Source: an uncultured Gammaproteobacteria bacterium
GTDB taxonomy: Bacteria; Patescibacteriota; Microgenomatia; UBA10105; UBA927
Direction: 5' to 3'
Assembly (NCBI GenBank): GCA_964449585.1
Contig: CAYUZE010000003.1
Span: 76,385-130,942 of the forward strand
DNA length: 54,558 nucleotides
The notes under the pieces were generated by a model. The model saw only the letters and a list, made by a program, of their open reading frames with translations. It did not search any database and was not told where the DNA came from. This document shows positions 12,876-47,659 of this stretch, in pieces. Position 1 is the first letter of the stretch. Each line of letters starts with the position of its first letter. The position numbers were made by a program, and so were the translations under genes.

Positions 12876-12903
12876 TTGACAAAGAAAAAATGCGCGGTAT
12901 AAT
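12876..12903 (+). promoter_or_regulatory. sigma70 promoter for rpoBC
   Basis: TTGACA (12876-12881), 16-nt spacer, TATAAT (12898-12903). Confidence 0.8.
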
Positions 12904-12924
12904 GATGATTACTTGAATAGCCTT

Positions 12925-12957
12925 AAGGAGGCGAACGTTCATTGTTCGCTTCTTTTT
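12925..12957 (+). terminator. Terminator-like hairpin + U-tract inside the rpoB leader
   Basis: aaggaggcgaac / gttcgcttcttt 12-bp stem (2 G-U), 7-nt loop, running into the T-run at 12953-12957. Confidence 0.55.
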
Positions 12958-13004
12958 GTCGTTCTTTACAACAGTATAAACGGTCTTATTAAAAGCATTA
13001 CGTA

Positions 13005-16000
13005 ATGGCATCTAAACCTTCCATTTATAAGCGAGACAACTGGGGCACCGAATACCCCGACCTTCCCAAGTTAGACCTTACGTTAGTCCAACGCGAATCC
13101 TACCAATGGTTTTTGGAACACGGTATCAAAGAACTCCTTGATGAAGTAACCCCGATGACCGACTTCACCGGTAAGAACTGGGAACTCGGATTCGGAGATT
13201 ATTATTTCGGTCGACCGCGACTTACCCCCGAAATCGCACAACAAAAAGGACTCACCTTCGACATGCCGCTCAAAGTAAAAGCAACCCTCACCAACAAGCA
13301 AACCGGTCACCAGCTCACGCAGGAAGTCTTTTTGGGTGACATCCCCGCCATGACGGAACGCGGCACCTTTGTGATTAACGGTATTGAACGATGTGTGGTA
13401 AATCAGCTGGTTCGTTCACCGGGCGTGTATTTGACCGGAGAAGTCGATCCCTCCACGGGACGTACCTTATATAGTGCGGAAATCCGACCGATGCATGGAA
13501 GCTGGCTTGAATTCTTTGTAACACGAAACGACGTATTGATGGTGCGTATCGACCGACGGCGAAAGTTTGTGGCATCCACCTTCCTTCGCGCGGTAGGATT
13601 CTCCTCAAATGAGGAAATCGAACGGTTGTTTGCCGAAGTTGACGTCAATCCCGATCATCAGTTCACCAAGGCAACGCTTGCCAAAGACACGACAACCGAC
13701 AGCAACGAAGCGGTGCTCGAGCTCTATCGCAAACTTCGCCCGGGAGAACCGATCGTCCTTGATAATGCCCAGGAGTTACTCCGCACGATGTTCTTTGACT
13801 ACCGACGATATTCCTTGGAGCGGGTCGGTCGCTACAAGATGAACAAGAAATTGAACCTCGATGTTCCCAACAACAAAGAAAATTGGGTACTAACCCGCGA
13901 CGATATCGTGGGCAGTATTCGTTACCTTATAAATTTGACCAACGGTAAGGGTGACGTCGATGATATCGATCATCTCGGCAATCGCCGTGTTCGACGAGTC
14001 GGCGAATTGGTTGCCACCAATGCATTCCGCGTCGGTATTTTGCGCCTTGAACGATCCATTCGTGAAAAAATGAGTTTAGCCGGACCCAATGCCGAGGATT
14101 TGACGCCGACGCACTTGGTGAATGCCCGACCGATCATTGCTTCTATCAATGATTTCTTCCGAACCAGTCAGCTTTCCACCATCTTGGATCAGACGAATCC
14201 CTTGGCCGAAATCGATAACCTTCGCCGTTTGACCGTTATGGGTGTCGGCGGTATCTCACGGGAACGCGCAAGCTTCTCTATTCGCGACATCAACGCATCA
14301 CAATACGGCCGTGTTGACCCCGTCAGAAGTCCTGAGGGACCGAACATCGGACTTGTCACCTACATGGCATTGTATTCGCGCGTCAATGAATACGGATTTT
14401 TGGAAACACCGTACCGCAAAGTGGAAAAAGTCATGCACGGCGACAAAGCCAAAGTGCGGGCAACCGATGAAATCGTCTACCTTGATGCAAACGATGAGAT
14501 GTATCACTACATTACCCACGCCGAACTTCCGAAGGACAAAGACGGATTTATCAGTGCGGATCGCGTGCCGGTTCGTTACAAGGGAGAGTTTTTGGAAACC
14601 GATGCATCGCTTATCGAATACATTGATATCGTACCGCGCCAGGTGGTAGGTGCACCCGCATCGCTTATTCCGTTCCTCGCCCATGACGAAGCAAACCGCG
14701 CGCTTATGGGTACGCACATGCAATGTCAGGCAGTACCGCTTTTGATCCCGCAATCACCCGTGGTGGGAACGGGTATGGAAGGCGCTGTCGTCGAATCTAT
14801 GGGACGCCTGGTACGCGCCACGGATGAGGGAGAAGTCATCTATTCCGATGCCGGACTTATCAAAGTCAAATACAAAAACGGCGATATTACCTCTTACGAA
14901 CCGCAGAAATTCAAGCGCACCTCACAGTCCACCTGCTATAACCAACGCGTGTTGGTGAACCTTGGGGATAAAGTGCAAAAGGGTGACGTGTTAATCGAAG
15001 CTCCCGCCTCGGAAAACGGCGAATTGGCATTGGGTTCCAACCTTACCATTGCCTACATGAGTTATGAAGGATTGGGCTATGAAGACGCCATCGTCATTTC
15101 CAACAGATTGGTTCGCGAGGACTTACTGACCTCGGTTCACATCGAAGAGCATGAATGCAGTGTCGTCGACACCAAACTTGGGCCGGAAGAAACCACCCGC
15201 GATATCCCCAATGTCGGCGAAGAAGCATTACGAAATCTTGATGAAAACGGTGTTGTCGTAGTTGGTGCCGATGTCGGACCCAACGATATCCTTGTCGGAA
15301 AAATTGCTCCGAAAGGGGAAACCGAACTTACGGCTGAAGAACGATTGCTTCGTGCAATCTTCGGAGAAAAGGCCCGTGAAGTGCGAGACACATCGCTTCG
15401 CCTCCCGCACGGAGAACGCGGAACGGTTATTGACGTCGTGACGCTTGATAAAGAAAAGGGTGACGAACTCGAACCGGGCACCAACAGAAAGATTATCGTC
15501 AAAATCGCGCAAATGCGTAAAGTCGTCGTCGGAGACAAACTTGCCGGACGTCACGGAAACAAAGGCGTTATTTCAAAGATTGTACCGCAGTCAGACATGC
15601 CGTATATGGCGGACGGAACGGTCGTTGACATCATTATTTCACCGCTTTCCGTGTTGAGCCGTATGAACCTCGGGCAATTATTGGAATCGCACCTCGGTCT
15701 TGCGATGAGTAAGATGAATGTCAAAGTCGGGCTTCCCGTATTTGAACATGTTTCCGAAGATCGCATGACCCAACAGATGGAAAAATCCGGATTGTCCTTA
15801 AGCGGCAAGAGCACCCTGTACGACGGGAAGACCGGAGAACCGTACAAGGAACCGATCGTTGTCGGTATCGGCTACATCATGAAGCTTATTCACATGGTGG
15901 AAGACAAGACACACGCGCGAAGTACGGGTCCGTACTCTTTGGTTACCCAACAGCCGCTCGGCGGAAAAGCACAAATGGGAGGACAACGACTTGGAGAAAT

Positions 16001-16379
16001 GGAAGTCTGGGCATTGGAATCACACAGAGCAGCTCACATACTGCAGGAAATGTTGACGATCAAATCCGACGATGTGGTTGGACGTGCCAAGGCATTCGAG
16101 GCAATCGTCAAAGGAACCGACATTCCCGCCTCCACCGTTCCGGAATCATTCAAGGTTTTGGTAAAAGAACTGCAGGCATTGGGTCTTAACGTCATTCCGA
16201 CCGGAGTCGTTACCGCGAAGCCCGCCGTCCTTGCCGATGCGGCAAAAGAAGAAGTGGTAGCCAAAGTCGCCAAGGAACTTGCGGAAGTGAGCGGGGAAGA
16301 AACGGTATCCGAGGAAGCAGCAGAAGATCGCGGTACAGAAACACCGGTAGAACCGAACGAAGGAGAAAACAATGGATAA
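13005..16379 (+). CDS. rpoB: RNA polymerase beta subunit
   Basis: [30 protein letters not shown]. Confidence 0.99.
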
Positions 16380-19300
16380 AAAAGGAAATTTCGCCAATAT
16401 TGTTGACTTTACCGGATTGCTTATCAAGCTTGCCGCTCCCGATGAGGTGAAGGCATGGAGTTACGGAGAGGTTATCAAACCGGAAACGATCAACTATCGG
16501 ACACTGAAGCCCGAAAAAGACGGACTTTTTGACGAGCGCATTTTCGGACCGACCAAGGACTGGGAATGTTACTGCGGCAAATACAAGAGAATCCGCTATC
16601 GCGGCATCGTCTGCGACAAGTGCGGTGTTGAGGTTACCCAAAGTAAAGTACGTCGCGAGCGAATGGGACACATCACGCTTGCCGCGCCCGTTGCCCACGT
16701 ATGGTTCTTTAAAGGAGCCCCGAGTAAGCTTTCGTTACTTTTGGATATTTCCCCGCGTGCGCTTGAAGGCGTTATCTACTTTGCTCAATACCTTGTCGTC
16801 GCCGTTGACGAAGAGGAAAAGAAGAAAGTATTGGCGGGCCTCGTAGAACAGGGAGAAAAGCGTATCGCCGATCTTGCCGCCCGCGTCGATGCGGAAAAAG
16901 AAAAACGCAAAAAAGAAATTGCACGGGAAAAGTCGGAGGTTGTTTCCAATGTGCACGGCAAGGAAGCACAGGATTTGGCAACCAGTGAATTGACGCTTCG
17001 TGAACGCCAGGAATTTGCCACGCTTGATGATCAATTTGAAAAGGAATCGGAAAAAATCAAACAGGTTATCGAGCAGATTACGGCTATTGTTAAAAGTATC
17101 AAGCCGCGGGTTACCATCACGGAAGATGAATACCTGAGACTTTTGGACTATGACGCATCTTCATTCTTGAAGGTCGGCATGGGAGCGGAAGCGATGCTTG
17201 AGGTGGTCAAGAAAATTGATCTTGATAAGCTTGCCGCGGAACTTCGTGAAGAAATCCAGACCTCCAGCGGACAACGCCATGTGAAGGCCACAAAGCGCCT
17301 TCGGGTAGTGGACGGCATGAGAAAATCCACGATCAATCCGACCTGGATGGTCATGCACACACTTCCGGTGTTGCCTCCGGATCTGCGTCCTATGGTGCAG
17401 CTTACCGGCGGCCGGTTTGCCACTTCCGATTTGAATGACTTGTACCGCAGAGTGATTAACCGCAACAACCGTCTGAAGCACCTTATGGATTTGGGAGCTC
17501 CCGAAATTATCTTGCGCAACGAAAAACGCATGTTGCAGGAAGCGGTTGACAGTCTTATTGATGCAACGCAACGCCCGTCGTCACGAACGGTTATCCAACC
17601 GCTTCGCAGTCTTTCCGACATGCTTCGCGGCAAACAGGGACGGTTCCGACAGAACCTTTTGGGAAAGCGCGTTGACTATTCCGGTCGTTCCGTTATCGTG
17701 GTAGGACCCGAATTGAAACTCAACCAATGCGGACTTCCCAAGGAAATGGCGCTTGAAATGTTCAAACCGTTTGTGCTCCGCGAACTTATCGTCCGGGGGA
17801 TTGCACCCAACGTCAAAAACGCAAAGAATGTATTGGAACGCAGAACGCCTGAGGTCTATGACATCCTGGAAGAAATCACCAAGAATCATCCGGTCATGTT
17901 GAACCGTGCGCCGACGTTGCACAAACTCGGATTCCAGGCATTTTATCCGGTACTTATCGAAGGCGCGGCCATCCGCATTCACCCCTGTGTGTGTGCAGGA
18001 TACAATGCCGACTTCGACGGAGACCAAATGGCCGTGCATATTCCGCTTTCCGCTTCTTCACAACAGGAAGCGATCGCGCTCATGTTGCCGACCCACAACC
18101 TGCTCAAACCCGCAGACGGATCGCCGATCACCGTTCCGAACAAGGAAATGGTAATCGGGTGTTACTACCTGACCACCATGAATGCAGCCGATGCTGCCGT
18201 CGATGAAACGACGTTGCATGCCTATGCGGATGCCGCAGAAGCGATCTATGCCTATCAATCAGGAAAAGTCGGACTCAGAAACCCGATCAGATTGCCGATT
18301 GACGGAAAGCTTACCGTTACGACCGTCGGAAAGATCATGTTTAACGAAGTGCTTCCTGAAGGACTTCGCTACATCAACACGCCGGTGAAGGCCGCAACGA
18401 TTAAGCAACTTATCACCAAAGCATTCGGCATGTATTCCAAGGAAGCGGTTACCGAGCTTATCGATGCCATCAAAAACATCGGTTTCTTCGGCGCCACGCT
18501 CTGCGGAGGATTATCCGTATCCGTCTTTGATAACCAATCCATCGAAGAAAAGAACGATATCATCGGGGAAGCGGATGCAAAAGTTAAAGAAATCGATCAA
18601 AACTTCCAAATGGGATTAATCACCCTTGAGGAAAAGAGGCGACTTTCCAATGAAGTCTGGATCGAAGTCACCGAACGTATTGCCGACCTTACTTGGGAAC
18701 GCTTGGATGCCGATAATCCGGTCAAGATGATTATCGACTCCGGAGGAGCGCGGGCAAGTAAAGATCAATTGAAGCAACTTTGTGCTATCAAAGGATTGGT
18801 TGTTGATCCGTTGGGTAAAATCGTGGAATTGCCTACCAAGAGTAACTATCGTGAGGGACTTTCCATCTTTGAGTACGTAACCAGTACCCGCGGATCACGC
18901 AAAGGTCTTACAGACTCGGCACTCAAAACCGCAGATGCCGGATACCTGACCCGACGGCTTGTCGATGTCGCGCATGACGTCATCATCAGAATGGCTGACT
19001 GCGGAACGACCGAAGGATGGACGCTTTCCCGAAAAGACGGTCGTCAGATGGCCTTTGCCAGTCGGCTCGCCGGACGATTCAGTGCGGAAGATGTGGTGGT
19101 TCCCGGAAGCAAAAAAGTGCTTGTCAAAAAAGGTGAGGAAATTACGGAAGATATTGCCCGCGAAATCGACGAAGCAAACGTTGAATCCGTCGTGGTACGT
19201 TCACCGATTGCCTGTACCGCGAAGATCGGTATCTGTGCGACCTGCTACGGACGCGACTATGCGACGACCAAACTGGTTGAGTTAGGCACGCCGGTCGGCG

Positions 19301-20094: not shown

Positions 20095-20099
20095 ATAGT

Positions 20100-20537: not shown

Positions 20538-20546
20538 TCGTAACCT

Positions 20547-21023
20547 ATGAGAACAAGCAAAACATATCATAAACTTCTTCCCGCCGATCCTATGTACGGC
20601 AATCGCCTGGTGACGCGATTTGTGAATCGCGTGATGGTTGACGGGAAAAAGACGGTTGCCGAAGGTCAGGTGTATAAAGCACTCGAACTTATTAAGGCAA
20701 AAACCAACGATGATCCCATCAAGGTATTTGAAAACGCCATCAACAATGTCGGTCCCAAGACGGAAGTAAAAGCACGCCGGGTCGGGGGAGCAAGTTACCA
20801 GGTGCCTATGGAAGTCCGCGGTGACCGCCGGGTATCACTTGCCATCCGCTGGATCGTCGAATTTGCCAAGAAACGAAGTAACCGTGAGTTCCATACGTTT
20901 GCCGAAAAGCTCGCGGCGGAAATATTGGATGCGGCAGGCAATGTCGGAGAAGCAATCAAAAAGCGAGACACCGTACACCGCATGGCGGATGCGAACAAAG
21001 CGTTTGCCCACTTCCGATGGTAA
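20547..21023 (+). CDS. rpsG: 30S protein S7
   Basis: RRVGGASYQVP, HRMADANKAFAH. Confidence 0.99.
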   Translation: MRTSKTYHKLLPADPMYGNRLVTRFVNRVMVDGKKTVAEGQVYKALELIKAKTNDDPIKVFENAINNVGPKTEVKARRVGGASYQVPMEVRGDRRVSLAIRWIVEFAKKRSNREFHTFAEKLAAEILDAAGNVGEAIKKRDTVHRMADANKAFAHFRW

Positions 21024-21622
21024 AAGGATCTTCGATTCACGCGCATTTTCAAAAAGCTGATCCCGTTCTTTTCTCCCTTTTGCCGTCACGTATCGTTCCC
21101 CTTCGTCCGAGTAGCTCCGGCACCTACTTTGCCAGCATGTGCCGCACCATTATCGGACAACAACTGTCCACGACGGCAGCAGACACCATCTATGCCAGAT
21201 TCCGCAAACTTTTCGGATCTACGCGCATCACTCCGACTACCGTGCTTGCGATTCCCGATGAGACGCTTCGAAGCGTCGGCATGTCCTATGCCAAAATTCG
21301 CTTTGTGAAAGACTGGGCAAGAAGAGTCAACGCCAAAGAAGTACCGCTTGCGGGACTCTCCGCGATGGATAACGAAGCGGTGATTGATATTCTTACGCAA
21401 ACAAAGGGGATAGGGAAGTGGACGGCAGAGATGTTTCTTATGTTCACCTTAGGGAGAGAAGACGTATTTTCCTTCGGCGATCTCGGACTCAAACGGGCTA
21501 TACAGACGGCCTATAAGTTAAAACGCGAGCCGTCAATGCAGTATATGGAACGACTGAGCAAACGGTGGGTGCCCTTCCGGACCTATGCCGCTCTTGCGCT
21601 ATGGGCATATAAGGATCAATAA
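21017..21622 (+). CDS. alkA: DNA-3-methyladenine glycosylase II (AlkA/HhH-GPD family)
   Basis: IIGQQLS, KGIGKWTAEMFLMF.LGREDV...D; start overlaps the rpsG stop. Confidence 0.9.
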   Translation: MVKGSSIHAHFQKADPVLFSLLPSRIVPLRPSSSGTYFASMCRTIIGQQLSTTAADTIYARFRKLFGSTRITPTTVLAIPDETLRSVGMSYAKIRFVKDWARRVNAKEVPLAGLSAMDNEAVIDILTQTKGIGKWTAEMFLMFTLGREDVFSFGDLGLKRAIQTAYKLKREPSMQYMERLSKRWVPFRTYAALALWAYKDQ

Positions 21623-21633
21623 TAGAAGGAGCT

Positions 21634-22020
21634 TTGAAAGTACTCATTACCCTCGTTATCCTCGGTATTCTGGGAATAGGTATCCGATACGGATTTTTGT
21701 TGCGACAAACAGCTCGCGCCTGTAACGCCGTATATCAGGAATCACTCGATACCATAGCCGCACAATCGCAAACCGTGCTCGCCGACAACAAAACCTCGTG
21801 TATTAACTCGTACTCACTCCTCACTGAATGGGATGCCTGTCTTACGAAGGGAAAAGACGCTGTTCCCGATACGCTTCTTCCGGTCGTCAGCCCCGTCGTT
21901 TCGAATGTCATGCTGTTTTTCCGCGAAAAACGTAAGGATATGTCGGTACTCAAAAAAGAACACGACGTCCGGTGCAAAGGATACACCGAGCTCATATTTT
22001 TCCCTCCCGATGCGGAGTGA
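21634..22020 (+). CDS. Hypothetical membrane-anchored protein with four Cys
   Basis: N-terminal hydrophobic helix; TTG start, uncertain. Confidence 0.55.
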   Translation: MKVLITLVILGILGIGIRYGFLLRQTARACNAVYQESLDTIAAQSQTVLADNKTSCINSYSLLTEWDACLTKGKDAVPDTLLPVVSPVVSNVMLFFREKRKDMSVLKKEHDVRCKGYTELIFFPPDAE

Positions 22021-22029
22021 AACGAGTCT

Positions 22030-22674
22030 ATGCAAGGCGGCTTACACAAAATAACCGTCCAAAAGCCGAATAGATCACGCCTCTTTCTCGCCATCCCCAT
22101 CGAACATACCTGGCAGTATGCGCTTGCTGCCTGGCAATTGAACGTGGGAAAAAAACTTGCCTGCGGCACCGTACCGACCAGGTGGACGTCGCCGGCGCAG
22201 TATCATATAACCGTTCGTTTTATCGGGACTATCGAACAACGTCTCGTACCGGGGATTGTGGCGCAGCTTCGTGGACTCATCAGCCGACACCGTGCGTTTT
22301 CATTACCCTTTCACGGTATTGAGTACGCAACACCGAACGAACCGAAAATGATTTGGGCACGATTTTCCAAAACCGCCCGGTTTAACCGGTTAGTTCAGGA
22401 TATGACGCGTCAGATTCCCCGTTTTCTCTCTATGCATGGGGAAAAAACGCCGCAACTTTCGGGACATGGGATCATTCCCCATATTACGCTTGCCCGAGCC
22501 AAAGGGAATTTTCATGCCGGATCGATGCTTTCCGGCGATACAATAACGCCAGACGCACCGCTTCCCGTGCGCTCACTTATCCTGTATGAGTCGGTACATA
22601 TCCCGGATCAAACCGTCTATAAAACAATTGCAACGTTCCCTTTGCCACCTCAAGACGGTACCATAGAAGCATGA
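22030..22674 (+). CDS. thpR: RNA 2',3'-cyclic phosphodiesterase (2H family)
   Basis: RLFLAIP, two HxT motifs (YHITVRF, PHITLAR). Confidence 0.9.
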   Translation: MQGGLHKITVQKPNRSRLFLAIPIEHTWQYALAAWQLNVGKKLACGTVPTRWTSPAQYHITVRFIGTIEQRLVPGIVAQLRGLISRHRAFSLPFHGIEYATPNEPKMIWARFSKTARFNRLVQDMTRQIPRFLSMHGEKTPQLSGHGIIPHITLARAKGNFHAGSMLSGDTITPDAPLPVRSLILYESVHIPDQTVYKTIATFPLPPQDGTIEA

Positions 22675-23885
22675 AGATCAAATACGCTTTGCTGGGTATA
22701 CTGTTTGCCGTCATTGCGTACGGGGCGTGGTTTGTCTATACGAATCTTCGAGGAAGCGGAGCCGCCTTCGGTCCGATCCCGCGTATATCTGAAGAAGCGG
22801 TAAACACGGCTCCGTTATCGACGGCATCGATAAACCGTACCGGTCTGCCGCTGACGGTTGCAGACGGAGTGTCGCTTTCGATTTTTGCAAAAGACCTGGG
22901 GGCTCCGCGGGTACTAACTGAGGATGCAACCGGGACAATCCTTACAAGTATTCCCGCACAAAGCAAAGTGGTGGCATTACCCGATGCGAATGCCGACGGT
23001 GTCGCGGACACGGTGATGACGGTTGCGGAAGGACTTTCCCTGCCGCACGGGATCGCGTTTCATGGCGGGCGACTCTTTATCGCCGAAACAAATATGGTAG
23101 CGTCGTACGCCTACGATCCGACGACAAAAAAAGCGACGGATAAAAAAAAGCTTTTTGACCTTCCCGTCGGCGGCAATCATTTCTCGCGTTCGATAGGATT
23201 TGGTCCGGACGGAAAACTCTATGTTTCCATAGGATCCAGTTGCAATGTTTGTGTGGAGAAGGATCCGCGACGGGCGGCGATATTTGTCGCCAATGCGGAC
23301 GGCTCCGGTTTTCGCAGTTTTGCCACCGGCTTAAGAAATACGGTGTTCTTTACCTGGCACCCGGAAACACGCGAGATGTGGGGAACGGATATGGGGAGGG
23401 ATCTTTTGGGAGACAACACGCCGTTTGAGGAAGTGAATATCATCAAAGACGGCGCTTACTACGGATGGCCGTATTGTTACAACAATAAAACGCATGACGG
23501 ATCCTTTGATCCGAGTGCTCAGGCAAAAGAAAAATGCGAGGCGAGTGTCTCACCGCATATCACCTTTCAGGCACATGCTGCACCGCTGGGATTGGCGTTT
23601 GTTCCGGAAAGTTGGCCACCGCAGTATCGGGGAGATCTCCTCGTTGCGTATCACGGTTCATGGAATAGAAGCGCTCCCACGGGATATAAAATCGCGCGGT
23701 TTGACCTCAACGAGCAACATGCAGCCAATGAGGAATCTGATTTCATTGCCGGTTGGCTGGTCGGAAACGGTGCTTTAGGCAGACCGGTCGGATTGTTGTT
23801 TAGCCACGACGACACACTCTATATAAGCGATGACAAATCAGGGACAATTTACCGCGCGGTACCGGTTGCGCCGTCAGGAAAGTAA
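22671..23885 (+). CDS. Glucose/sorbosone dehydrogenase (GSDH, PQQ-type beta-propeller), membrane-anchored
   Basis: GLRN..., GPDGKLYVSIGSSCN, YGWPYC, HAAPLGL, GRPVG. Confidence 0.85.
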   Translation: MKIKYALLGILFAVIAYGAWFVYTNLRGSGAAFGPIPRISEEAVNTAPLSTASINRTGLPLTVADGVSLSIFAKDLGAPRVLTEDATGTILTSIPAQSKVVALPDANADGVADTVMTVAEGLSLPHGIAFHGGRLFIAETNMVASYAYDPTTKKATDKKKLFDLPVGGNHFSRSIGFGPDGKLYVSIGSSCNVCVEKDPRRAAIFVANADGSGFRSFATGLRNTVFFTWHPETREMWGTDMGRDLLGDNTPFEEVNIIKDGAYYGWPYCYNNKTHDGSFDPSAQAKEKCEASVSPHITFQAHAAPLGLAFVPESWPPQYRGDLLVAYHGSWNRSAPTGYKIARFDLNEQHAANEESDFIAGWLVGNGALGRPVGLLFSHDDTLYISDDKSGTIYRAVPVAPSGK

Positions 23886-25592
23886 TCAACCGAACGTAAA
23901 TGCGTAAAGCTCAATATCCCCGTCCAGCACTTCCAGTTTGAGGATATGTTTGCCTGCGCTTGGGAGTTTAATAAGTTTGTATAACCGGTCGGCGGTTACT
24001 TTTACCTTCCCGTCCTCAACGTCGTCTCCTTTGAGTTCATCGGTAACGGGAACCCCATCCAGGAAGACGCGAATGCCCCCTTTGGCATCTGCCTTGGGTC
24101 GCATGACAAGGAAGACCTCTTTTGCCTCAAAGTGATAGGTGAGAGTGGCTCCCGTGTGCGGCATTGCCCGTTCTCCGCCGATCGTCCATTTCCCCGACAA
24201 TGCAAAGGTGTTCTTGGGAAGGGTTGCGGGTGCGGAAAATTCCGTGAGCATATCCGGCCGTACCGGTTCGGGAGAAACAATTCCCGCCATTCGTTCATAG
24301 CCAAGGTAGGTTTCCGGGGTTCTCGCTTCGACGCGATAGGCTGGATTTTCAATGGCATCCTCGACGGTTGTTCCCGTTTCTTTGAGAAGCGCTTGGATCA
24401 TCGCTTCCGTTTCATCATAGTCGCCCTCGCCGAAATGTGTGTAGCGGATTTTTCCGTTTTTATCGACCATATATTTTGCCGGCCAATAACGGTTGGCATA
24501 CGCCCGCCAGGTTTTATAGTCGTTATCCTGCATGATGGGGTAGGTAAGTCCGAAATCAGCGGCCGCTTTCTTCACGTTAGCAAGGTCTTTTTCGAACTCG
24601 AATTCAGGCGTATGGACGCCGACGATAACCAGTCCCTTGTCTTTATACTTTTCATGCCATGACCGGATGTAGGGGAGCGTACGAATGCAGTTTATGCAGG
24701 TGTACGTCCAGAAATCGACCAACACTACCTTTCCGCGCAACTCTTGCATGGTGAGGGGAGCGGAGTTTATCCACTCACCGCCGGCAATAAATTCGGGTGC
24801 GTTGCCGTAATTATTCTCCAAGAGATCGGTCAGCATAGATCCTCCTTTTTGTAAATCGGTTAACCGGTTTCGTACCAGTGCATTGTCTTCAAGTTTTGTA
24901 AGACCCGTGCCGTATGCGGGAAATTTATCCAATATAAACGTCTGAAACGCTCGATCCCAGGAATGATAAATGGCGAGTGCGGTAAGGAGCATAAGGATAC
25001 CGAATGCTTTCTGAATTTTCGCGGTATTTGCCAGTAACCAAGGGTGGTTGGTGAGCAGGGATCTGCCACCCATGGTGATGGCAAGGAGGGGAATCGCCGT
25101 CCCTAAGGCATATGCGAGGGTAAGGATGACTGCATTGAACCCTACGGTGCTGGTGGCGGCAAGCGTAATGATAGAGGCAAGGATCGGGCCCACGCAGGGT
25201 GTCCATAGCAAGCCTAAACTTACGCCAACCAAGACTCCGGAAAGATACCCGTCGTTTTGCGATTGCCGAGGGACAAACGCCGTCATTTTCGAAAAGAATT
25301 TCTCTACCATAATTTGAAATGCGGGGATAAGCAGACTGACGCCGAAGAACGCAATGACAAAAACGGCAACGAGCCGCAACACATCTGCTGAAAGTCCCGT
25401 AGATCGGACAATTGCCGAAAGAAACAGCGTGAAGAAGGTAAAGCTCGCGATAAATCCGGTAACCACCCCCAACGGACGACGCTTGCCGCCGGTTATACTC
25501 CCGGATAGCACCACCGGCAAAATAGGGAGAATACACGGAGAAAGAATGGTGATAAGTCCGCCTAAGAATGCAAAAAGGATAAGAATAATCAT
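23886..25592 (-). CDS. dipZ: DipZ-like protein (CcdA membrane domain + TlpA thioredoxin + C-terminal domain)
   Basis: ILSPCILP and WTPCVGP (CcdA Cys pair), FWTYTCINC, C-terminal YAFTFG. Confidence 0.92.
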   Translation of the reverse strand: MIILILFAFLGGLITILSPCILPILPVVLSGSITGGKRRPLGVVTGFIASFTFFTLFLSAIVRSTGLSADVLRLVAVFVIAFFGVSLLIPAFQIMVEKFFSKMTAFVPRQSQNDGYLSGVLVGVSLGLLWTPCVGPILASIITLAATSTVGFNAVILTLAYALGTAIPLLAITMGGRSLLTNHPWLLANTAKIQKAFGILMLLTALAIYHSWDRAFQTFILDKFPAYGTGLTKLEDNALVRNRLTDLQKGGSMLTDLLENNYGNAPEFIAGGEWINSAPLTMQELRGKVVLVDFWTYTCINCIRTLPYIRSWHEKYKDKGLVIVGVHTPEFEFEKDLANVKKAAADFGLTYPIMQDNDYKTWRAYANRYWPAKYMVDKNGKIRYTHFGEGDYDETEAMIQALLKETGTTVEDAIENPAYRVEARTPETYLGYERMAGIVSPEPVRPDMLTEFSAPATLPKNTFALSGKWTIGGERAMPHTGATLTYHFEAKEVFLVMRPKADAKGGIRVFLDGVPVTDELKGDDVEDGKVKVTADRLYKLIKLPSAGKHILKLEVLDGDIELYAFTFG

Positions 25593-25596
25593 TTCG

Positions 25597-26106
25597 TTAT
25601 TTAATGTTTGCGATGAGATCGCGAATATCGCCCCCATTCCACTTGGTTACTTCGCGGCCGTCTTCGTCCACCTGCACGAACGTGTGTTGATAGGTTATCC
25701 CATACTTTCTCTTGAGAGCGGTTGCACTGTCATAATCGGTTTTAAACAAAACCACATCTTCAGGAATATTCGCCGAATTGTTCTGGAATGCCGCATCCGC
25801 AGGTCTGCAGGTGGGGCACCACGGCGCGTGGAAAAACAGCACCCGTTTTTTGTCAGCAGAGGCTTCAAATGCCGTTTCGGAATACGCAAGATAGCGGGTT
25901 TCATTTTTCATCATTGTCCCGTCTTCCTTTTTCATGGCATCATCGTTGCTTTCCGCATTTTCCATCATCGTATCGGTTTCTTCCATTGCGGATGTCGGGG
26001 ACCGCATGCGAGCGTTATCGACGGACGACTGATTATTTTTAAACGCTACGACTCCTCCGACAAGGGTAAGAACTATGACGACGCCGATGATGAGTTTGTT
26101 TTTCAT
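25597..26106 (-). CDS. Exported thioredoxin-family protein
   Basis: N-terminal signal/anchor, FFHAPWCPTC, YGITYQHTFV; SD ggagg. Confidence 0.9.
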   Translation of the reverse strand: MKNKLIIGVVIVLTLVGGVVAFKNNQSSVDNARMRSPTSAMEETDTMMENAESNDDAMKKEDGTMMKNETRYLAYSETAFEASADKKRVLFFHAPWCPTCRPADAAFQNNSANIPEDVVLFKTDYDSATALKRKYGITYQHTFVQVDEDGREVTKWNGGDIRDLIANIK

Positions 26107-26143
26107 AAAACCTCCAGAAAAAGCAAACGTTGTTACTTATCTC

Positions 26144-26172
26144 ACAATATAACCGTTTTCCGGGAATGTCAA
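26144..26172 (-). promoter_or_regulatory. sigma70 promoter for the thioredoxin-dipZ operon
   Basis: Minus strand: TTGACA, 17-nt spacer, TATTGT. Confidence 0.6.
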
Positions 26173-26196
26173 GCGGACTTAACATCGAAGTTGATG

Positions 26197-26571
26197 TTAC
26201 TGGGTGATTTGTGTATAGAGTCGGACAAGAATTTTCGTGAGTAACATGCCGCCGAGGGCGCCTAGTAGCCAGGGGTCGATGTTGTGATTGAGTGCCTGGG
26301 TAATAATGCCAATGGTGAGTATCGATGATCCGACAAAAAAGGATATTCTTCCTGCGGTTAGCTGATGCGCATGTTCGCGTTCATCCGCCGCCCGTTCTTT
26401 CCAGATAAATCCCAGGTAGGCAAAAAAAGCGAGCGCAAATAATACCAGTAAAAACATCTCGGTGGATTTGGGCATAAGGAGTCCCGGAGGGGTTATAAAC
26501 GCTGCCAGAAGAACGATGAGCATGAGCGCCGTGGCAACCTCTCCGAGTTGATAACGTGTTATTTTTTGCAT
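26197..26571 (-). CDS. Membrane protein, DUF2178-like
   Basis: Four hydrophobic helices with a DERE...AGRISF motif; downstream of and overlapping an XRE gene, the usual context for this pair. Confidence 0.6.
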   Translation of the reverse strand: MQKITRYQLGEVATALMLIVLLAAFITPPGLLMPKSTEMFLLVLFALAFFAYLGFIWKERAADEREHAHQLTAGRISFFVGSSILTIGIITQALNHNIDPWLLGALGGMLLTKILVRLYTQITQ

Positions 26572-26765
26572 AGTTCAAATATTGATTCTACTGGTTTATG
26601 AAAGTACTGTGCAATCTTGAGTGCCAAAAGTAATGACGGGGTGTAGGAGCCTTTCTCTATGGAGATAATTGTTTGACGGGTAACACCGATAGCCGTGGCC
26701 AGCTGTTCCTGGGTGATTTTTGCTTTCGCACGTAGTTCATTGACGGAATTTTCTATCGTTTCCAT
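26559..26765 (-). CDS. XRE-family helix-turn-helix regulator
   Basis: TQEQLA..IGVTRQTIISIEKG.Y.PSL.LALKIA..F. Confidence 0.93.
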   Translation of the reverse strand: METIENSVNELRAKAKITQEQLATAIGVTRQTIISIEKGSYTPSLLLALKIAQYFHKPVESIFELCKK

Positions 26766-26812
26766 GCAGCAGCGATTATACCCTAGTATTTTTAAAACCG
26801 AAAACGAGGGGG

Positions 26813-26843
26813 TTGACTATAACGTTACGTTATTGTTTAGTAT
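26813..26843 (+). promoter_or_regulatory. MerR-type promoter with dyad operator
   Basis: TTGACT (26813-26818), 19-nt spacer, TAGTAT (26838-26843); perfect dyad ATAACGT-T-ACGTTAT at 26819-26833. Confidence 0.85.
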
Positions 26844-26849
26844 CACGAT

Positions 26850-27593
26850 ATGGTCTATACGGTAAGACAATTAGCACAGCTTGCGGGGGTAAGCGTCCGC
26901 ACACTTCATTATTACGACAACATCGGTTTGCTCAAGCCGTCCTTCGTGCGGCAAAACGGGTATCGTATCTATGAGGAAAAAGAAGTGCGCAAGCTCCAAC
27001 AGATATTGCTGTTTCGTGAGTTAGCGTTTCCGTTAGACCAGATTCAGCGCATGATGACTGCAAAGAATTTTGACGTTAAGCAGGCGCTTCACGATCAATA
27101 TCGGTTGCTTACGCTTAAAAAAGCAAAAATACAACGGCTTATGCATGTGGTGGAAGGCCGATTGAAAGGAGGTGATACCATGACGAACCAAAATCAATTC
27201 GGTGTATTTACCGACAAACAATTGGAAAACTTTAAAGAGGAAGCGCGCAAGCGATGGGGTGAAACGGATGCCTACAAGCAATCCGTAGAACGCACAAAAC
27301 ACTGGACAAAAGCAGACTATGACAGGATTGCGGAAGAGGGCACGAAATTCACCGAAGCACTGGCAAAGCTTATGGATAGAGGAATAGCAGATGAAAAAGT
27401 ACAGCAGATGATCGAAAAACACTATCAGGGCATCAAGGTGTTTTATGATTGTCCGATTGAGATGTACAGAAGTTTAGGAGCAATGTATGTCGAAGATCCG
27501 CGCTTTCGCGCGTATTACGAAAAGTTCCGCAAAGGCATGGCGGCGTTTATGAACAATGCTATCGCCTATTACTGCGATAGCCACACGACCTAA
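26850..27593 (+). CDS. MerR-family regulator of TipA/Mta type (MerR HTH + TipAS-like domain)
   Basis: GVSVRTLHYYDNIGLLKP, NGYRIY; EARKRWG.TDAY, LGAMYVEDPRF. Confidence 0.93.
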   Translation: MVYTVRQLAQLAGVSVRTLHYYDNIGLLKPSFVRQNGYRIYEEKEVRKLQQILLFRELAFPLDQIQRMMTAKNFDVKQALHDQYRLLTLKKAKIQRLMHVVEGRLKGGDTMTNQNQFGVFTDKQLENFKEEARKRWGETDAYKQSVERTKHWTKADYDRIAEEGTKFTEALAKLMDRGIADEKVQQMIEKHYQGIKVFYDCPIEMYRSLGAMYVEDPRFRAYYEKFRKGMAAFMNNAIAYYCDSHTT

Positions 27594-27601
27594 TCGATAT
27601 T

Positions 27602-27628
27602 CTCCGGGATGATACGTACATCCCGGAG
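27602..27628. repeat. Perfect 10-bp inverted repeat downstream of the MerR gene (possible terminator/processing stem)
   Basis: ctccgggatg-N7-catcccggag. Confidence 0.6.
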
Positions 27629-27770
27629 GTGTCGGGGTGATATCAGCGTGTGCTGACGGTATGGAACATCTTCCCCCGGCTTTTTTCTGTGTACGCAAAA
27701 AATATTGCGTAGCATTCAAACAAGGGAAAAAATTGCAAAATATGCAAAGAAAGCGTATAGTTAGCGCGCT

Positions 27771-28025
27771 ATGGCAGTACAAAAAGAGGGTACGACAAGA
27801 ATAAATGCAGGGTGTGAATTTCTTCATGACCGGCAGATAGCTGATGTGCAGGTGGAAGTAGTTGAGCCGGTTAATGTGGGAAGTACGGGAAGGTGTTTGG
27901 GGACATGCCCCGATTGTCCAGCACTCCCGGGTAGGTCAGTGACGTTTATTTCCGTAAGCAGGTTTCCCGCGTTAGGCATAGGAAACACGATTGTCAAACC
28001 AGTGACCGGTACGGAGACGGCATAG
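27771..28025 (+). CDS. Small hypothetical protein with CxxxCxxC
   Basis: 84-aa ORF preceded by TTGCAA-17-TATAGT (27733-27761), 9 nt before the ATG. Confidence 0.45.
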   Translation: MAVQKEGTTRINAGCEFLHDRQIADVQVEVVEPVNVGSTGRCLGTCPDCPALPGRSVTFISVSRFPALGIGNTIVKPVTGTETA

Positions 28026-28051
28026 ACAACCGGTATATTTTTTAGTACAAT
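28023..28051 (+). promoter_or_regulatory. sigma70 promoter for fusA-tuf
   Basis: TAGACA (28023-28028), 17-nt spacer, TACAAT (28046-28051). Confidence 0.65.
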
Positions 28052-28084
28052 CATCTCTATAGAAGTGTTGAAGGAAATATTTGT

Positions 28085-28105
28085 CCCGCTTCGGCGGGTT
28101 TTTTT
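28085..28105 (+). terminator. Terminator-like hairpin + U7 ending 6 nt before the fusA start
   Basis: cccgc-ttcg-gcggg followed by ttttttt. Confidence 0.65.
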
Positions 28106-28111
28106 ATTACT

Positions 28112-30214
28112 ATGGCAAATCCACAAACAACCGTAACCGAAAATCGCGACGTCCCTCTTGATAAGGTGAGAAACATCGGCATTATCGCCCATATCGATGC
28201 CGGGAAAACCACGACCACTGAGCGCATCCTTTTTTATACCGGAAGAAGTTATAAATTAGGCGACATCGATGAAGGTAACACCCAAATGGACTGGATGGAG
28301 CAGGAACGGGAACGGGGTATTACCATCGTGTCCGCCGCAACCACCACGTTTTGGAAAAGCTACCGCTTCAACATCATTGATACTCCCGGACACGTGGACT
28401 TTACCGCGGAAGTAGAGCGGTCACTACGGGTGCTTGACGGCGGCATCACCGTGCTTGACGCGGAAGAAGGCGTGCAATCACAGTCGGAAACCGTATGGCA
28501 TCAGGCGGATAAATATAAAGTGCCGCGTATCTGTTTTGTCAACAAAATGGACAAAATCGGCGCGGATTTCAGAAACACGATTAAACAGATCGAAGAGCGC
28601 CTCGGTGCGCGGACCGCCGTTATGGTCGTTCCCATCGGTCGCGAAAACACCTTTCGGGGTGCCGTTGATTTGTTGACCCGTGAGGCACACGTATGGAATA
28701 CCGATGATTTGGGCGCAAACCCCGAAACGATTGAAATTCCCGAAGAACTGAAAGCCGAAGTCGAACAATCACGCCATGATCTTATTGAACGCATTGCCGA
28801 AACGGATGATGCGCTTCTTGAAAAATATCTCGGCGGAGAAGAAATCGGTGTCGAGGAACTTAAAGCGAGTCTTCGTCGTGCCGTTATCGCCTACAAGCTT
28901 GTTCCTATTTACTGCGGCACCAGCTTGAGAAACAAAGGCGTACAACCGCTTCTTGATGCGGTTGTGGATTATTTGCCATCACCGCTTGATCTTCCCGAGG
29001 TGGAAGGAACCAATCCGAAAACCAATGAAAAAACGACCAGAAAGCGTGTGAACGAAGAGAAGTTCTCCGGTTTGGCGTTTAAAATCCAAATTGATCCGCA
29101 TGTCGGAAAACTTACCTACGTCCGTATCTACTCAGGCAAACTTGAATCGGGTTCTTATGTCTATAACTCCACAAAGGGAGCAAAGGAACGCGTCGGTCGA
29201 TTGCTTTTGATGCATGCGAATCAACGGGAAGAAATCCGTGAGGCATATGCGGGAGAAATCGTGGGCGTCGTCGGATTTAAGGATACGATTACGGGCGATA
29301 CGATTTGTGAGGATGCCAATCCGATTGTGCTTGAGCAGATCACCTTCCCCGAACCGGTTATTTCTTTGGCGATCGAACCCAAGACCAAAAACGACCAGGA
29401 AAAGATGGGGTATGCACTGCAGCGGTTAAGCGAAGAAGACCCGACATTTAAGATCAAATCCAATCAGGAAACAAATCAGACCATTATCTGGGGTATGGGT
29501 GAACTACACCTCGAAATCCTCGTTGACCGCATGAAACGGGAATTTAAGGTTGAAGCAAATGTGGGAGCGCCGCAGGTTGCTTACAAGGAAACCATCAAGA
29601 AAATGGCTGAAGGAGAAGGAAAGTATATCCGACAAACCGGAGGTCGCGGTCAATACGGTCATGCAATGATTCGCATCGAACCGAAAGCACGAGGCGAAGG
29701 ATTTGAGTTTATCGATGCCATCAAGGGAGGAGCGGTTCCCAACGAATTTATTCCGCCTATTGAAAAAGGTATCGTGGAAGCCATGGAAAACGGCGTACTT
29801 GCAGGCTACCCCTTGGTAGATATGTCGGCAACCCTTTACGACGGAAGTTATCACGATGTCGACTCTTCGGAAATGGCCTTTAAGATCGCAGGATCCATGG
29901 CATTGCAGGATGCGGTAAAGCATGCCGACGCGACGATCCTCGAGCCGATCATGAAGGTTGAGGTTACAACCCCGGACGAATATATGGGAGATTGTATCGG
30001 TGACCTTTCCGCGCGTCGCGCGCAAATCATGGGATCCGAACAGCGGGGAACCGTGACGGTGATTCTTGCCATGGTGCCGCTTGCGGAATTGTCAGGATAC
30101 GCCACCGTGCTTCGTTCGTTATCCAAAGGAAGAGCGACCTATTATATGGAGCCTTCCCATTACGAAGAAGTGCCGAAGAATATCCAAGAAAAGATTATTG
30201 CGAAAAACGTCTAA
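28112..30214 (+). CDS. fusA: Elongation factor G
   Basis: [29 protein letters not shown]. Confidence 0.99.
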
Positions 30215-30303
30215 GGTGTGTTAAAATGTCGCAAGCGACTTAATTTTTTAAGGTCGAGTATTTATTTTTTATAAACATTATTGAGATCTTGTAAGGAGGG
30301 AAT

Positions 30304-31491
30304 ATGGCAGATGCAGCCAAATTTGTTCGAAGTAAACCACATTTGAATATCGGAACCATCGGTCACGTTGACCATGGAAAAACAACCCTTACCTCCGCAA
30401 TCACCCACGTGCTTGCCAAAAAAGGCATGGCGAAGGCGATGAAATATGAGGAAATCGATAATGCCCCCGAAGAAAAGGCGCGCGGAGTCACCATTAACAT
30501 TCACCACTCCGAATACGAAACCGACAAACGGCACTATGCCCACATTGATGCACCGGGACACGCTGATTATGTCAAAAACATGATCACCGGAGCCGCCCAA
30601 ATGGACGGAGCCATCTTGGTGGTATCTGCGCCGGATGGTCCGATGCCGCAGACCCGCGAGCACATCCTGCTTGCAAACCAGGTTAACGTTCCCGCCATCA
30701 TTGTCTTCATGAACAAATGCGACATGGTGCAGGACAAAGAGCTTTTGGATCTTGTGGAAATGGAAGTTCGTGAACTTCTTACCAAATACAAGTATCCGGG
30801 GGACAAAATCCCGGTTATCCGCGGCTCCGCGCTTAAAGCATTGCAAGGTGATGCTGATGCGGAAAAGGCGATTGAAGAGCTCATGAAGACCGTGGATGAA
30901 TATATCCCGGATCCCGTTCGTGAACTCGACAAACCGTTCCTTATGCCGGTAGAAGACGTCTTCTCCATCAAAGGGAGAGGAACTGTCGTGACCGGAAGAG
31001 TTACCCGCGGAAAGGTGAAAGTCGGCGACACGATTGAAATTGTCGGTATCAAACCGTCACAATCCACTGTCGTTACCGGAGTCGAAATGTTTAGAAAATC
31101 ACTCGACGAAGGACTTGCCGGCGACAACATCGGCGTGTTACTCCGAGGCGTCGAAAAAGAACAGGTCGAACGAGGTCAGGTGCTTTCAGCATCCGGCTCG
31201 GTAAAGCCGCACACCGAATTTGAAGCGGAAGTCTACGTCTTGACCAAAGAAGAAGGCGGACGACACACACCGTTCTTCACGGGATACCGACCGCAGTTCT
31301 ATATCCAGACGACCGACGTAACCGGAGAAGTTGCCCTTCCCCAGGGAGTCGAAATGGTTATGCCTGGAGATAGTACCAAGATGAATGTCAAACTTATCGT
31401 ACCCGTTGCTCTTGAAGAAGGACTTCGGTTTGCTATCCGCGAGGGTGGTCATACGGTAGGAGCGGGAGTTGTTACAAAGATTATCGCTTAA
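30304..31491 (+). CDS. tuf: Elongation factor Tu
   Basis: [24 protein letters not shown]; SD aaggagg. Confidence 0.99.
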
Positions 31492-31533
31492 GTTTCTTAA
31501 CTTATTAAGGCACATTAAGCACATTAACACACA

Positions 31534-31842
31534 ATGCCAAAAGGTCGTATTCGTGTCAGGTTAAAAGCATATGACAGCAGGATCGTCGATGACTGTTGTC
31601 AAAAAATACTCGATACCGCAGTGAGAACGGGTGCTCGGGTTGTGGGACCGGTTCCCCTTCCTACCGACAAAACCCATTTCAATGTGGCACGGGCGACCTT
31701 TATCGACCGGAATAGCCGCGAGGACTTTATGATCAAAGTCCATAAGCGACTTATCGACATTGTGGAACCTACCGATAAGACCATTGATCAACTTATGCAT
31801 CTGGATCTTCCGGCGGGGGTGGATATTGAGATTAAGATGTAA
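31534..31842 (+). CDS. rpsJ: 30S protein S10
   Basis: IRVRLKAYD, GPVPLPT, HKRLIDI. Confidence 0.98.
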   Translation: MPKGRIRVRLKAYDSRIVDDCCQKILDTAVRTGARVVGPVPLPTDKTHFNVARATFIDRNSREDFMIKVHKRLIDIVEPTDKTIDQLMHLDLPAGVDIEIKM

Positions 31843-31843
31843 T

Positions 31844-31872
31844 TTGAGTTTGGAGAGATACTCTGGTATACT
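31844..31872 (+). promoter_or_regulatory. Internal sigma70 promoter upstream of rplC
   Basis: TTGAGT (31844-31849), 17-nt spacer, extended TGgTATACT (31864-31872). Confidence 0.65.
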
Positions 31873-31955
31873 TAAGAATCTTGATATGACGCGACAAAGC
31901 GAAATATCGGAAGTAACCAAAAGTCTCGGATGAGCGTGTCCCGACAAATTTCGGG

Positions 31956-31984
31956 AAAACGACCTCAACCGAGGTCGTTTTTTT
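31956..31984 (+). terminator. Terminator-like hairpin inside the rplC leader
   Basis: aaaacgacctc-aacc-gaggtcgtttt perfect 11-bp stem, T-run to 31984. Confidence 0.65.
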
Positions 31985-31997
31985 GTGGAATATCTAT

Positions 31998-39893: not shown

Positions 39894-39897
39894 TTCT

Positions 39898-43585: not shown

Positions 43586-43634
43586 CCCGAATTACTTGAC
43601 GTGACGGCTATTGGAGGATTACGCTGTCATCACT

Positions 43635-45638: not shown

Positions 45639-45646
45639 TTTACCGG

Positions 45647-46231: not shown

Positions 46232-46277
46232 AGTAGGATATATGTATTATAGTTAACTGTAGCATTTTTTGTTTTCC

Positions 46278-47633: not shown

Positions 47634-47659
47634 TATAGCCGGGTGTTTGCGCCAATAGT

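Follow-up and report, generated by a model that had tools for sequence, protein, structure and literature searches.

Terminator-shaped hairpins in the leaders of rpoB, fusA and rplC: candidate attenuators in Microgenomates-type Patescibacteria

Attenuation in the leaders of RNA polymerase and ribosomal-protein operons is well known; of gene regulation in the candidate phyla radiation (CPR) almost nothing is known. A stretch of 54,558 nucleotides of CPR DNA from contig CAYUZE010000003.1, referred to below as the window, features three terminator-shaped hairpins, located in the leaders of rpoB, fusA and rplC, each between a promoter and the start codon of the first gene of an operon. They had been pointed out in a first-pass annotation, made by inspection of the window alone. 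Here, they are compared with the described leader elements, followed in related genomes, and interpreted as candidate leader attenuators, a reading to which about even probability is assigned. A literature search found no paper combining CPR with intrinsic terminators.

For rpoB, the closest described element is the partial terminator located upstream of the gene in E. coli and Pseudomonas, where a lower polymerase efficiency leads to less termination and to a higher expression of rpoBC, a form of homeostasis (PMC4324240). This rplL-rpoB attenuator, which corresponds to P26 in Pseudomonas aeruginosa, is likewise a terminator-type hairpin, immediately upstream of rpoB. It lies, however, within an operon, after rplL in rplKAJL-rpoBC, while the rpoB gene of the window has its own promoter, 24 nt before the hairpin; rplL was found upstream of rpoB in no CPR locus, and in non-CPR loci only. 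The CPR hairpin is conserved in sequence, including its loop, and bears no sequence relation to the E. coli/Pseudomonas element: the two would be alike in their logic.

For rplC, two described leaders are relevant. In the S10 leader of E. coli, restricted to Gammaproteobacteria, ribosomal protein L4 and NusA terminate transcription just before the first gene (PMC3616713). Both this leader and the rplC leader of CPR head an operon encoding L3, L4, L23 and L2, and carry a terminator hairpin with a U-run just before the start codon; in both, a second hairpin is found directly upstream of the terminator, namely HD in E. coli, where L4 action requires it (PMC3616713), and P2 in the clade of the window. 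The two differ in gene order, as the S10 operon of E. coli starts with rpsJ, whereas in CPR the first gene is rplC, and rpsJ is grouped with tuf. The two leaders have no sequence similarity, and an explicit antiterminator helix is present in the CPR leader. In the infC-rpmI-rplT leader of B. subtilis an antiterminator forms first, making read-through the default, and the terminator is obtained when L20 traps the upstream segment (PMC1865079). Mutually exclusive terminator and antiterminator, of similar computed stability, and a conserved upstream segment pairing with the terminator are common to this leader and to the rplC leader of CPR; the operon, the protein and the sequence are different and, in CPR, the upstream segment pairs with the loop, the 3' arm and part of the 5' arm. 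In a survey of ribosomal leaders, a leader of the rplC operon is reported only for Archaeoglobi, upstream of rplC-rplD-rplW-rplB, and none is reported for CPR (PMC7247131). The Archaeoglobi candidate, an L4 leader, is archaeal, has an unrelated structure and does not match the CPR leader.

For a leader specific to fusA, we know of no counterpart or precedent. A different group of elements to be considered is that of the 5'-terminal stem-loops which stabilize abundant mRNAs, such as those of the ompA type in E. coli and of the aprE/ermC type in B. subtilis. These do not need a U-run and require the very 5' end, while the hairpins of the window begin about 15 (rpoB), 27 (fusA) and 80 nt (rplC) after the start sites, as predicted from the -10 boxes; only a subset of fusA leaders from relatives, where the hairpin begins at about +1, fits a 5'-terminal stabilizer. 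Leader attenuation as such is not new. Novelty lies in the members, in the lineage and in the placement: rplC is the first gene, fusA has a specific leader, and the rpoB leader carries a promoter of its own.

Hairpins between promoter and start codon

Terminator-like sites were searched over the whole window, on both strands, by a score of the d'Aubenton-Carafa type (d), computed from a weighted U-run and from the energy of the hairpin relative to its length; 20 dinucleotide shuffles of the window were used as a null model. The elements which the first-pass annotation had located at 12925-12957, 28085-28105 and 31956-31984 are all present, and hold the first three ranks: d is 49.5 for fusA, 42.7 for rplC and 25.5 for rpoB. 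The next-best site (d = 18.4) is antisense, inside a gene. Shuffled sequences gave on average 0.6 hits at d>=25, and none at d>=40. A general terminator scan misses the rplC site, where the flanking A and U runs pair with each other, consuming the tail.

All three hairpins are on the plus strand. The rpoB element spans 12925..12959; its core (12928-12952, extendable to 12925-12955) has the sequence GAGGCGAACG-TTCAT-TGTTCGCTTC, is followed by the U-run TTTTTGT, and lies 52 nt before the ATG at 13005. The fusA element (28085..28105) consists of CCCGC-TTCG-GCGGG (28085-28098) and of seven T residues (28099-28105), ending 6 nt before the ATG at 28112. The rplC terminator (31960..31984) is formed by CGACCTC-AACC-GAGGTCG (31960-31977) and again by seven T residues (31978-31984), located 13 nt before the ATG. 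In the order rpoB, fusA, rplC, stems are 10-13, 5 and 7-11 bp long, loops measure 5, 4 and 4 nt, free energies are -13.1, -8.7 and -10.7 kcal/mol, and z-scores for folding are -4.46, -2.4 and -5.19. A GC-containing stem, a short loop and a U-run directly after the stem are found in all three, as in terminators, and in the relatives the leading T-run is 5-8 nt long in 22/22 rplC and 26/29 fusA leaders. None of the three, however, closes a transcription unit: each is located after a promoter and ahead of the first start codon. Gene ends of the window, where the first-pass annotation had noticed no such hairpins, are indeed poor in them: only 0-18 nt separate convergent genes, and the total of weak terminator-like sites does not exceed that of the shuffles. 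Upon scanning the window against Rfam, only a tRNA-Pro was found, and no Rfam 15 family reached its gathering threshold in the leaders. When the three leaders were compared with Rfam up to E = 10, only a spurious eukaryotic sRNA was obtained; coverage of the E. coli S10 leader by Rfam is unconfirmed.

Each hairpin is preceded by a sigma-70-type promoter or promoter-like site. For rpoB, this is TTGACA-16-TATAAT (12876..12903, plus strand), matching the consensus at 12/12 positions; the hexamers are kept in near and distant relatives, around which spacer and flanks diverge. The fusA site, TAGACA-17-TACAAT (28023..28051, plus strand), is kept as a pair in L081-L089 and L171-L178 (loci of relatives are indicated by L numbers), although the sequence upstream is unrelated. 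The rplC site (31844..31872, plus strand) is TTGAGT-17-TATACT with a TG (TGGTATACT), and TGGTATACT is conserved in the clade. From the end of the -10 box to the hairpin, 24 (rpoB), 33 (fusA) and 87 nt (rplC) are counted in the window.

The genes that follow, all on the plus strand and with identities checked by Pfam, are rpoB (13005..16379), first gene of rpoB-rpoC-rpsL-rpsG, a unit ending with rpsG at 21023; fusA (28112..30214), first gene of fusA-tuf-rpsJ, ending with rpsJ at 31842; and rplC, encoding L3 (31998..32636), which opens rplC-rplD-rplW-rplB...secY-adk-map. The start of rplC was set by an alignment of L3 N-termini to the ATG at 31998 (MITALLGKK...), correcting an in-frame TTG at 31983.

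A fourth case is found at infA. Here, a promoter (TTGACC-17-TACAAT, 49283-49311, plus strand) is followed by a 13-15 bp hairpin (49324-49355, plus strand), whose U-rich tail is weak; the ATG, at 49366, comes 10 nt later. The gene, coding for IF-1 (49366-49584, plus strand), opens infA-rpmJ-rpsM-rpsK-rpsD-rpoA-rplQ-rplM-rpsI. Among ten near relatives (L161-L170), neither the promoter hexamers nor the hairpin varies, even in L169, where the rest of the spacer has diverged. With infA, every fragment of the ribosomal superoperon present in the window opens with a promoter, a hairpin and a start codon. None of the four first genes has a Shine-Dalgarno sequence, while one is present at the internal genes tuf, rpoC, rpsL and rpsS.

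Recurrence and placement in relatives

Relatives were collected as 80 genome loci, selected by RpoC, and 80 metagenome loci, selected by EF-G; near relatives were obtained by exact look-up of the IF-1, S10 and S12 proteins, which gave near-identical contigs in, for instance, SRR15237809, SRR31850041 and GCA_009612915.1. An element was counted when a sense-strand hairpin with U-run, at d>=10, was present within 130 nt upstream of a start. Related sequences are not independent of each other, and gene maps of the relatives are crude maps of open reading frames (ORFs), so that the classes of gene context derived from them are used qualitatively.

The window itself belongs with the loci termed Microgenomates-like below. 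Its best RpoC matches, at 56-77% identity, are metagenome-assembled genomes labelled Patescibacteria, Microgenomates, Woesebacteria, Levybacteria and Curtissbacteria. At 39417-40323, L15 directly follows S5, with no L30 gene between them, and CPR genomes are reported to lack an L30 gene. The CPR assignment, already made by the first-pass annotation, is sound because of both the RpoC matches and the missing L30 gene.

Hairpins with a U-run recur, in Microgenomates-like loci, at rpoB (22/38), fusA (28/80) and rplC (22/37); in other lineages they are found at 1/37, 4/36 and 2/11 of the respective genes. The internal genes of the same operons, in Microgenomates-like loci, are nearly or completely devoid of them: none was found at rpoC (0/49), rpsL (0/62), rpsG (0/64), rplW (0/31) and rplB (0/30), one at rplD (1/30), and a few at tuf (7/58) and rpsJ (5/49). 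Counts for rpoB and rplC are underestimates, because in several leaders a spacer of one or two bases separates hairpin and U-run; most fusA genes lacking the element directly follow rpsG, with no spacer in which to host it. Absence from relatives would have spoken against the elements, as the first-pass annotation had anticipated; the opposite was found.

Stems differ between relatives, while their position is kept. At fusA, CCCGC/GCGGG is replaced, at the same place, by CTGTCTCGCC/GCGGGGCAG, GCTTCCC/GGGGAGC or CTGCTTC/GRRGCAG; at rplC, CGACCTC is replaced by GCGCC, GGTGC, GGGGGCC or GTAGCC. This recurrence, with different sequences and in dozens of relatives, effectively refutes the notion that AT-rich spacers gave rise to the hairpins by chance. 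The number of weak sites does equal the shuffle expectation; the first three ranks of the window, in contrast, all come from about 350 nt, the combined length of three leaders, and for them the probability of a chance origin is next to nil. On the basis of sequence and architecture, in which they are unrelated to each other, the leaders form three independent families across Microgenomates-type Patescibacteria. For a "shared attenuation layer", one of the interpretations offered in the first-pass annotation, sequence and architecture give no evidence; attenuation as such is discussed below.

The hairpins might also be ordinary terminators of the upstream unit, with a hidden promoter, located after the hairpin or overlapping it, from which a leaderless or nearly leaderless mRNA would start. 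Many genes of the window have a -10-like box 6-12 nt before their start, and an ORF of the same orientation ends no more than 130 nt ahead of the hairpin in 17/27 cases for fusA and in 10/22 for rplC. Candidate promoter elements can also be pointed out: a weak TTTACA-16-TATTAA is located at 12965-12992, between the rpoB hairpin and its ATG, and a good -10 hexamer is found past the hairpin, 5-9 nt before the fusA ATG, in L081, L089, L131 and L171/L174/L177. In the window, however, no -10-like hexamer is present between hairpin and ATG of either fusA or rplC, where only 6 and 13 nt are available. In the relatives, a promoter-like match with a score of 9 or higher precedes the hairpin in 9/22 (rpoB), 21/28 (fusA) and 15/22 (rplC) leaders; the interval from hairpin to ATG contains one in 0/22, 1/28 and 0/22, respectively, which bears out the earlier observation that no second promoter is to be seen there.

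Placement of the elements tells against ordinary terminators as well. A conserved promoter is located at a fixed distance upstream of the hairpin, the hairpin remains when the upstream gene is divergent or far away, and promoter and hairpin travel as a unit with the downstream gene. For rpoB genes with a hairpin, the upstream gene is divergent in 7/20 cases. The rplC hairpin is found 7-60 nt before rplC even where 0.4-1.5 kb, minus-strand genes included, separate the gene from rpsJ, and promoter and hairpin of fusA are kept beside an 84-aa ORF, rpsG or a divergent gene. An origin of the first-gene mRNAs from a promoter past the hairpin is, on the whole, improbable.

Distances within the leaders bear on another alternative, namely that the hairpins do not terminate at all, protecting instead the 5' end from decay, with the U-run serving as an unstructured landing site for ribosomes, of the S1 type. 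The missing Shine-Dalgarno sequence at rpoB, fusA, rplC and infA, and its presence at internal genes, fit such a role. For most leaders of fusA and rplC, 0-25 nt are left between the end of the U-run and the ATG. Moreover, in a window otherwise nearly free of terminators, the signal may serve some use other than termination. The -10 box lies 6-23 nt before the fusA hairpin in 21/29 leaders; in 9/29 the distance is as short as 6-10 nt, which would place the hairpin at about the start of the transcript, where stabilizing stem-loops are classically found.

The other two leaders behave differently. At rplC, a -10 box could be detected in 20 relatives, and in 17 of them it is 63-93 nt (about 76 nt) away from the hairpin; at rpoB, the distance is mostly 24-34 nt where a -10 box was detected. 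The hairpin is thus found some 65-85 nt from the predicted 5' end at rplC, too far for a 5' stabilizer, and in most cases 18-27 nt from it at rpoB; neither position is 5'-terminal. Median distances from hairpin to ATG are 19.5 (rplC), 42.5 (rpoB) and 18 nt (fusA), and a U-run about 42 nt from the ATG, as in rpoB, is too distant to replace a Shine-Dalgarno sequence. In the leaders that were read, including rpoB leaders below the score threshold, the U-run abuts the stem, while its distance from the ATG varies from 7 to 99 nt: such a pattern would be expected for a terminator or pause site, rather than for a ribosome-binding site. As the conserved pairing described in the next section for the rplC leader would also be left unexplained, a role as stabilizers or translation enhancers is considered doubtful, though it ranks first among the alternatives to attenuation.

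Alternative folds in the leaders

In the clade of the window, about 105 nt of structured RNA make up the rplC leader, for which two alternative folds are predicted. The leader includes the P1 helix (31881..31910, plus strand), TTGATAT..ATATCGG with an inner CGC/GCG helix. RNAalifold, run on MAFFT alignments, recovered terminator helices only; P1 was read by eye and, by eye, is kept with other sequences: GATATGA/TCATATC, CTTATGA/TCACATAAG and TTGTTC/GAACAA. It is followed by ACCAAAAGUCUCGG (31916-31929, plus strand), unchanged in 13 leader versions; this motif is present in 8 of the 160 loci, in seven of them within an rplC leader and in one (L112) elsewhere. The P2 hairpin, TCCCGA-caaatt-TCGGGA (31939..31956, plus strand), comes immediately before the terminator. 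Among organisms with an identical S10 protein P2 occurs in five sequence versions, all forming a hairpin; UCCCGC/GCGGGA, UCCGC/GCGGA, CCUCGC/GCGGGG and CCCGA/UCGGG are found as stems. P2 covaries in the near relatives of the window, and is missing in L081, L085 and L088.

The antiterminator would be formed by the invariant segment GUCUCGG-A-UGAG (31923-31934, plus strand), pairing with CUCA-A-CCGAGGU (31964-31975). The latter strand consists of the end of the 5' arm of the terminator, its loop and most of its 3' arm: as both helices use 31969-31975, terminator and antiterminator are mutually exclusive. Over the 13 leader versions, pairing amounts to 98.9% in the outer antiterminator helix and to 100% in the terminator, as compared to 29-54% in controls obtained by sliding. 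One compensatory change is found, from G-C to A-U, in L083. The need to satisfy two pairings at once explains why the shared segments are invariant, while P1 and P2 drift. Computed energies are nearly the same for the two folds: -23.8 kcal/mol for antiterminator and P2, -20.7 to -25.2 kcal/mol for terminator and P2. Whether the transcript is truncated at 31975 or the leader is folded in full, the antiterminator is the fold of minimum energy. In the wider clade, complementarity between the upstream part of the rplC leader and the hairpin exceeds that of shuffled versions, with a mean z of -1.21 and with values below -1.64 in 10/22 leaders.

A different feature is seen in the rplC leaders of the distant Microgenomates loci L005, L008, L093, L099 and L106. 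These carry the motif GGAGGTGAT, a full complement of the anti-Shine-Dalgarno sequence, in or beside tiny ORFs with 5-7 codons; the terminator hairpin follows some 40-60 nt further on. The motif is not found in the clade of the window. It could belong to a leader peptide, or be a decoy for ribosome binding.

In the rpoB leader, conservation is concentrated in the hairpin itself. A block of 35 nt, AGGCGAACGTTCATTGTTCGCTTCTTTTTGTCGT, is near-invariant in L181-L186, L001 and L027, while its flanks diverge; over the window, its near relatives and L001 and L027, at 77% identity, the intergenic region keeps only the promoter hexamers and AGGCGAACGTTCATTGTTCGCTTCTTTTTGTCGT. Conservation of the loop hints, at the level of sequence, at a specific recognition. 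Two further candidates were discarded. A leader peptide could be drawn in the window (AAGGAGG at 12925-12931, a TTG at 12942 and an ORF of 16 codons); both AAGGAGG and the ORF are lost in L001 and L027. The boxA-like GTTCTTTACAACA, after the U-run (12961-12973), is kept in species-level relatives, and in neither L001 nor L027.

In fusA leaders, an arrangement of three segments, GAAGCA / CUGCUUC / GRRGCAG, is found in L083, L084, L087-L089, L103, L114, L115, L119, L131 and in leaders of the L171 type, partly with matching changes. It is missing in L081, in L086 and in the class with a 5'-terminal hairpin, and is not claimed for the window. Loci L171, L174 and L177, whose S10 protein is identical to that of the window, have the hairpin GCTTCCC-agtc-GGGGAGC, preceded by a complementary GAAGCA segment; in the same loci, TACAAT is found after the hairpin, 6 nt before the fusA ATG, and may be a second, leaderless promoter. 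Still at fusA, the EF-G match spans about 2600 instead of 2100 nt in L081, L083-L085, L087-L090 and other metagenome relatives, which suggests either an insertion near fusA or an artefact of match joining.

Attenuation and its setting in the genome

Taken as leader attenuators, located between their own sigma-70-type promoter and a first start without Shine-Dalgarno sequence, the elements would act as follows. RNA polymerase would have to read through the hairpin in order to express rpoB-rpoC-rpsL-rpsG, fusA-tuf-rpsJ and rplC-rplD-..., and read-through is probably needed for the infA...rpoA unit as well. At rplC, where the antiterminator would be complete two nucleotides before the terminator, read-through would be the kinetic default, and termination would be triggered by a factor able to capture the upstream segment, or to stabilize P2 and the terminator. 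By analogy, this factor might be a protein of the operon, giving feedback control; L4 is the natural guess, because it is encoded by the second gene, at 32639-33343. The rpoB and fusA elements would most likely be partial terminators, like the rpoB attenuator of E. coli and Pseudomonas, with read-through set by polymerase kinetics, by NTP levels or by Nus factors. For fusA a simple partial terminator is the best guess, at a lower confidence. Termination as such, its partial or regulated character and the identity of the effector are all proposed here from the sequence.

A number of observations weigh against attenuation. Most pairs of terminator and antiterminator at rplC are invariant, which makes the support from covariation thin. 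No antiterminator signal is seen at rpoB, where complementarity of the upstream leader to the hairpin has a mean z of about 0, and at fusA the signal (mean z -0.65) is limited to a subset; a pairing found in the fusA leader of the window, UGUUGAAG:CUUCGGCG (p = 0.003), is rich in G-U pairs, is not kept in L081 and L086, and was rejected. The strict score explains part of a prevalence below 100%, but some loci are truly without the element. To these are to be added the 5'-terminal fusA hairpins and the -10 hexamers next to some fusA starts, both mentioned above. Finally, to place strong predicted terminators directly in front of essential operons with a high expression would carry a cost, unless polymerases read through them efficiently.

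The first-pass annotation had left the choice between attenuation and stabilization undecided. Attenuation is favored here by the rplC switch, by the position of the rpoB U-run and by the distance of the rplC hairpin from the predicted 5' end; the switch is, however, found at rplC only, and the fusA subset suits a stabilizer.

The location of the elements in a rearranged genome suggests a further role, that of insulators, stopping transcription that reads in from inserted upstream genes and sparing polymerases still in early elongation from the adjacent promoter. The usual rpoBC-str-S10-spc-alpha order is cut into four units by inserted blocks, a layout shared by near relatives, and each fragment gained a promoter and a hairpin. 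One block, of about 6.6 kb (21017-27593), contains unrelated genes (HhH-GPD, LigT, GSDH, DsbD/thioredoxins, an HTH gene, MerR/TipAS); another (43611-49267) contains a phosphodiesterase and two sulfatases. The fusA and rpoB hairpins, beginning about 0-27 nt into the transcript, could be passed by an early polymerase. The rplC hairpin, in contrast, is about 70-85 nt away from the start site, beyond any early-elongation window, and rpoB has, in the window, nothing to be insulated from, its neighbor being a divergent DUF1761 gene (12384-12800, minus strand, identified by Pfam). We know of no precedent for a polymerase escaping termination through early elongation, and insulation is regarded as very improbable, more so than a hidden promoter.

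Other features of the neighborhood are reported for completeness. The interval 26850-28025, just upstream of fusA, holds a gene for a MerR/TipAS-type regulator, after whose stop codon a strong 10-bp hairpin without U-run is located (27602-27628). The sole ORF in the approximately 400 nt before fusA codes for 84 aa (27771-28025); it has no Pfam match and is called as a gene in near relatives. Many non-ribosomal genes, lacking a Shine-Dalgarno sequence, show a TATAAT-like box 6-12 nt before their start, as in 8535-9083 and 26559-26765, both on the minus strand, and at 9162, 11095 and 26850; judging from these boxes, leaderless mRNAs may be widespread in the window. Two long minus-strand ORFs, 49336-49761 and 50243-51091, have no Pfam match, and are shadows of rpsM, rpsK and rpsD on the plus strand: a naive map based on the longest ORFs is wrong there.

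In its broadest form, attenuation would be a lineage-wide layer gating every fragment of the superoperon by a promoter-proximal intrinsic terminator, in a region with hardly any other terminators, with read-through tracking polymerase speed and nucleotide supply, and with a protein-responsive switch added at rplC. This extension is unlikely, falling between the stabilizing role and the hidden promoter in probability; if true, it would provide a simple growth-rate control of the gene expression machinery in nucleotide-scavenging, regulator-poor cells.

Whatever their mode of action, three or four short, well-defined, conserved cis-elements are found ahead of the most important operons of the cell, and a new family of ribosomal-protein leaders, with a readable switch, has a good candidate in the rplC leader. 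If the elements terminate, they would reveal how, once the superoperon had been broken up, a minimal bacterium keeps polymerase, elongation factors and ribosomal proteins in balance. If they do not, a canonical terminator signal would be read differently in this lineage, which would matter for the prediction of operons in thousands of CPR genomes.

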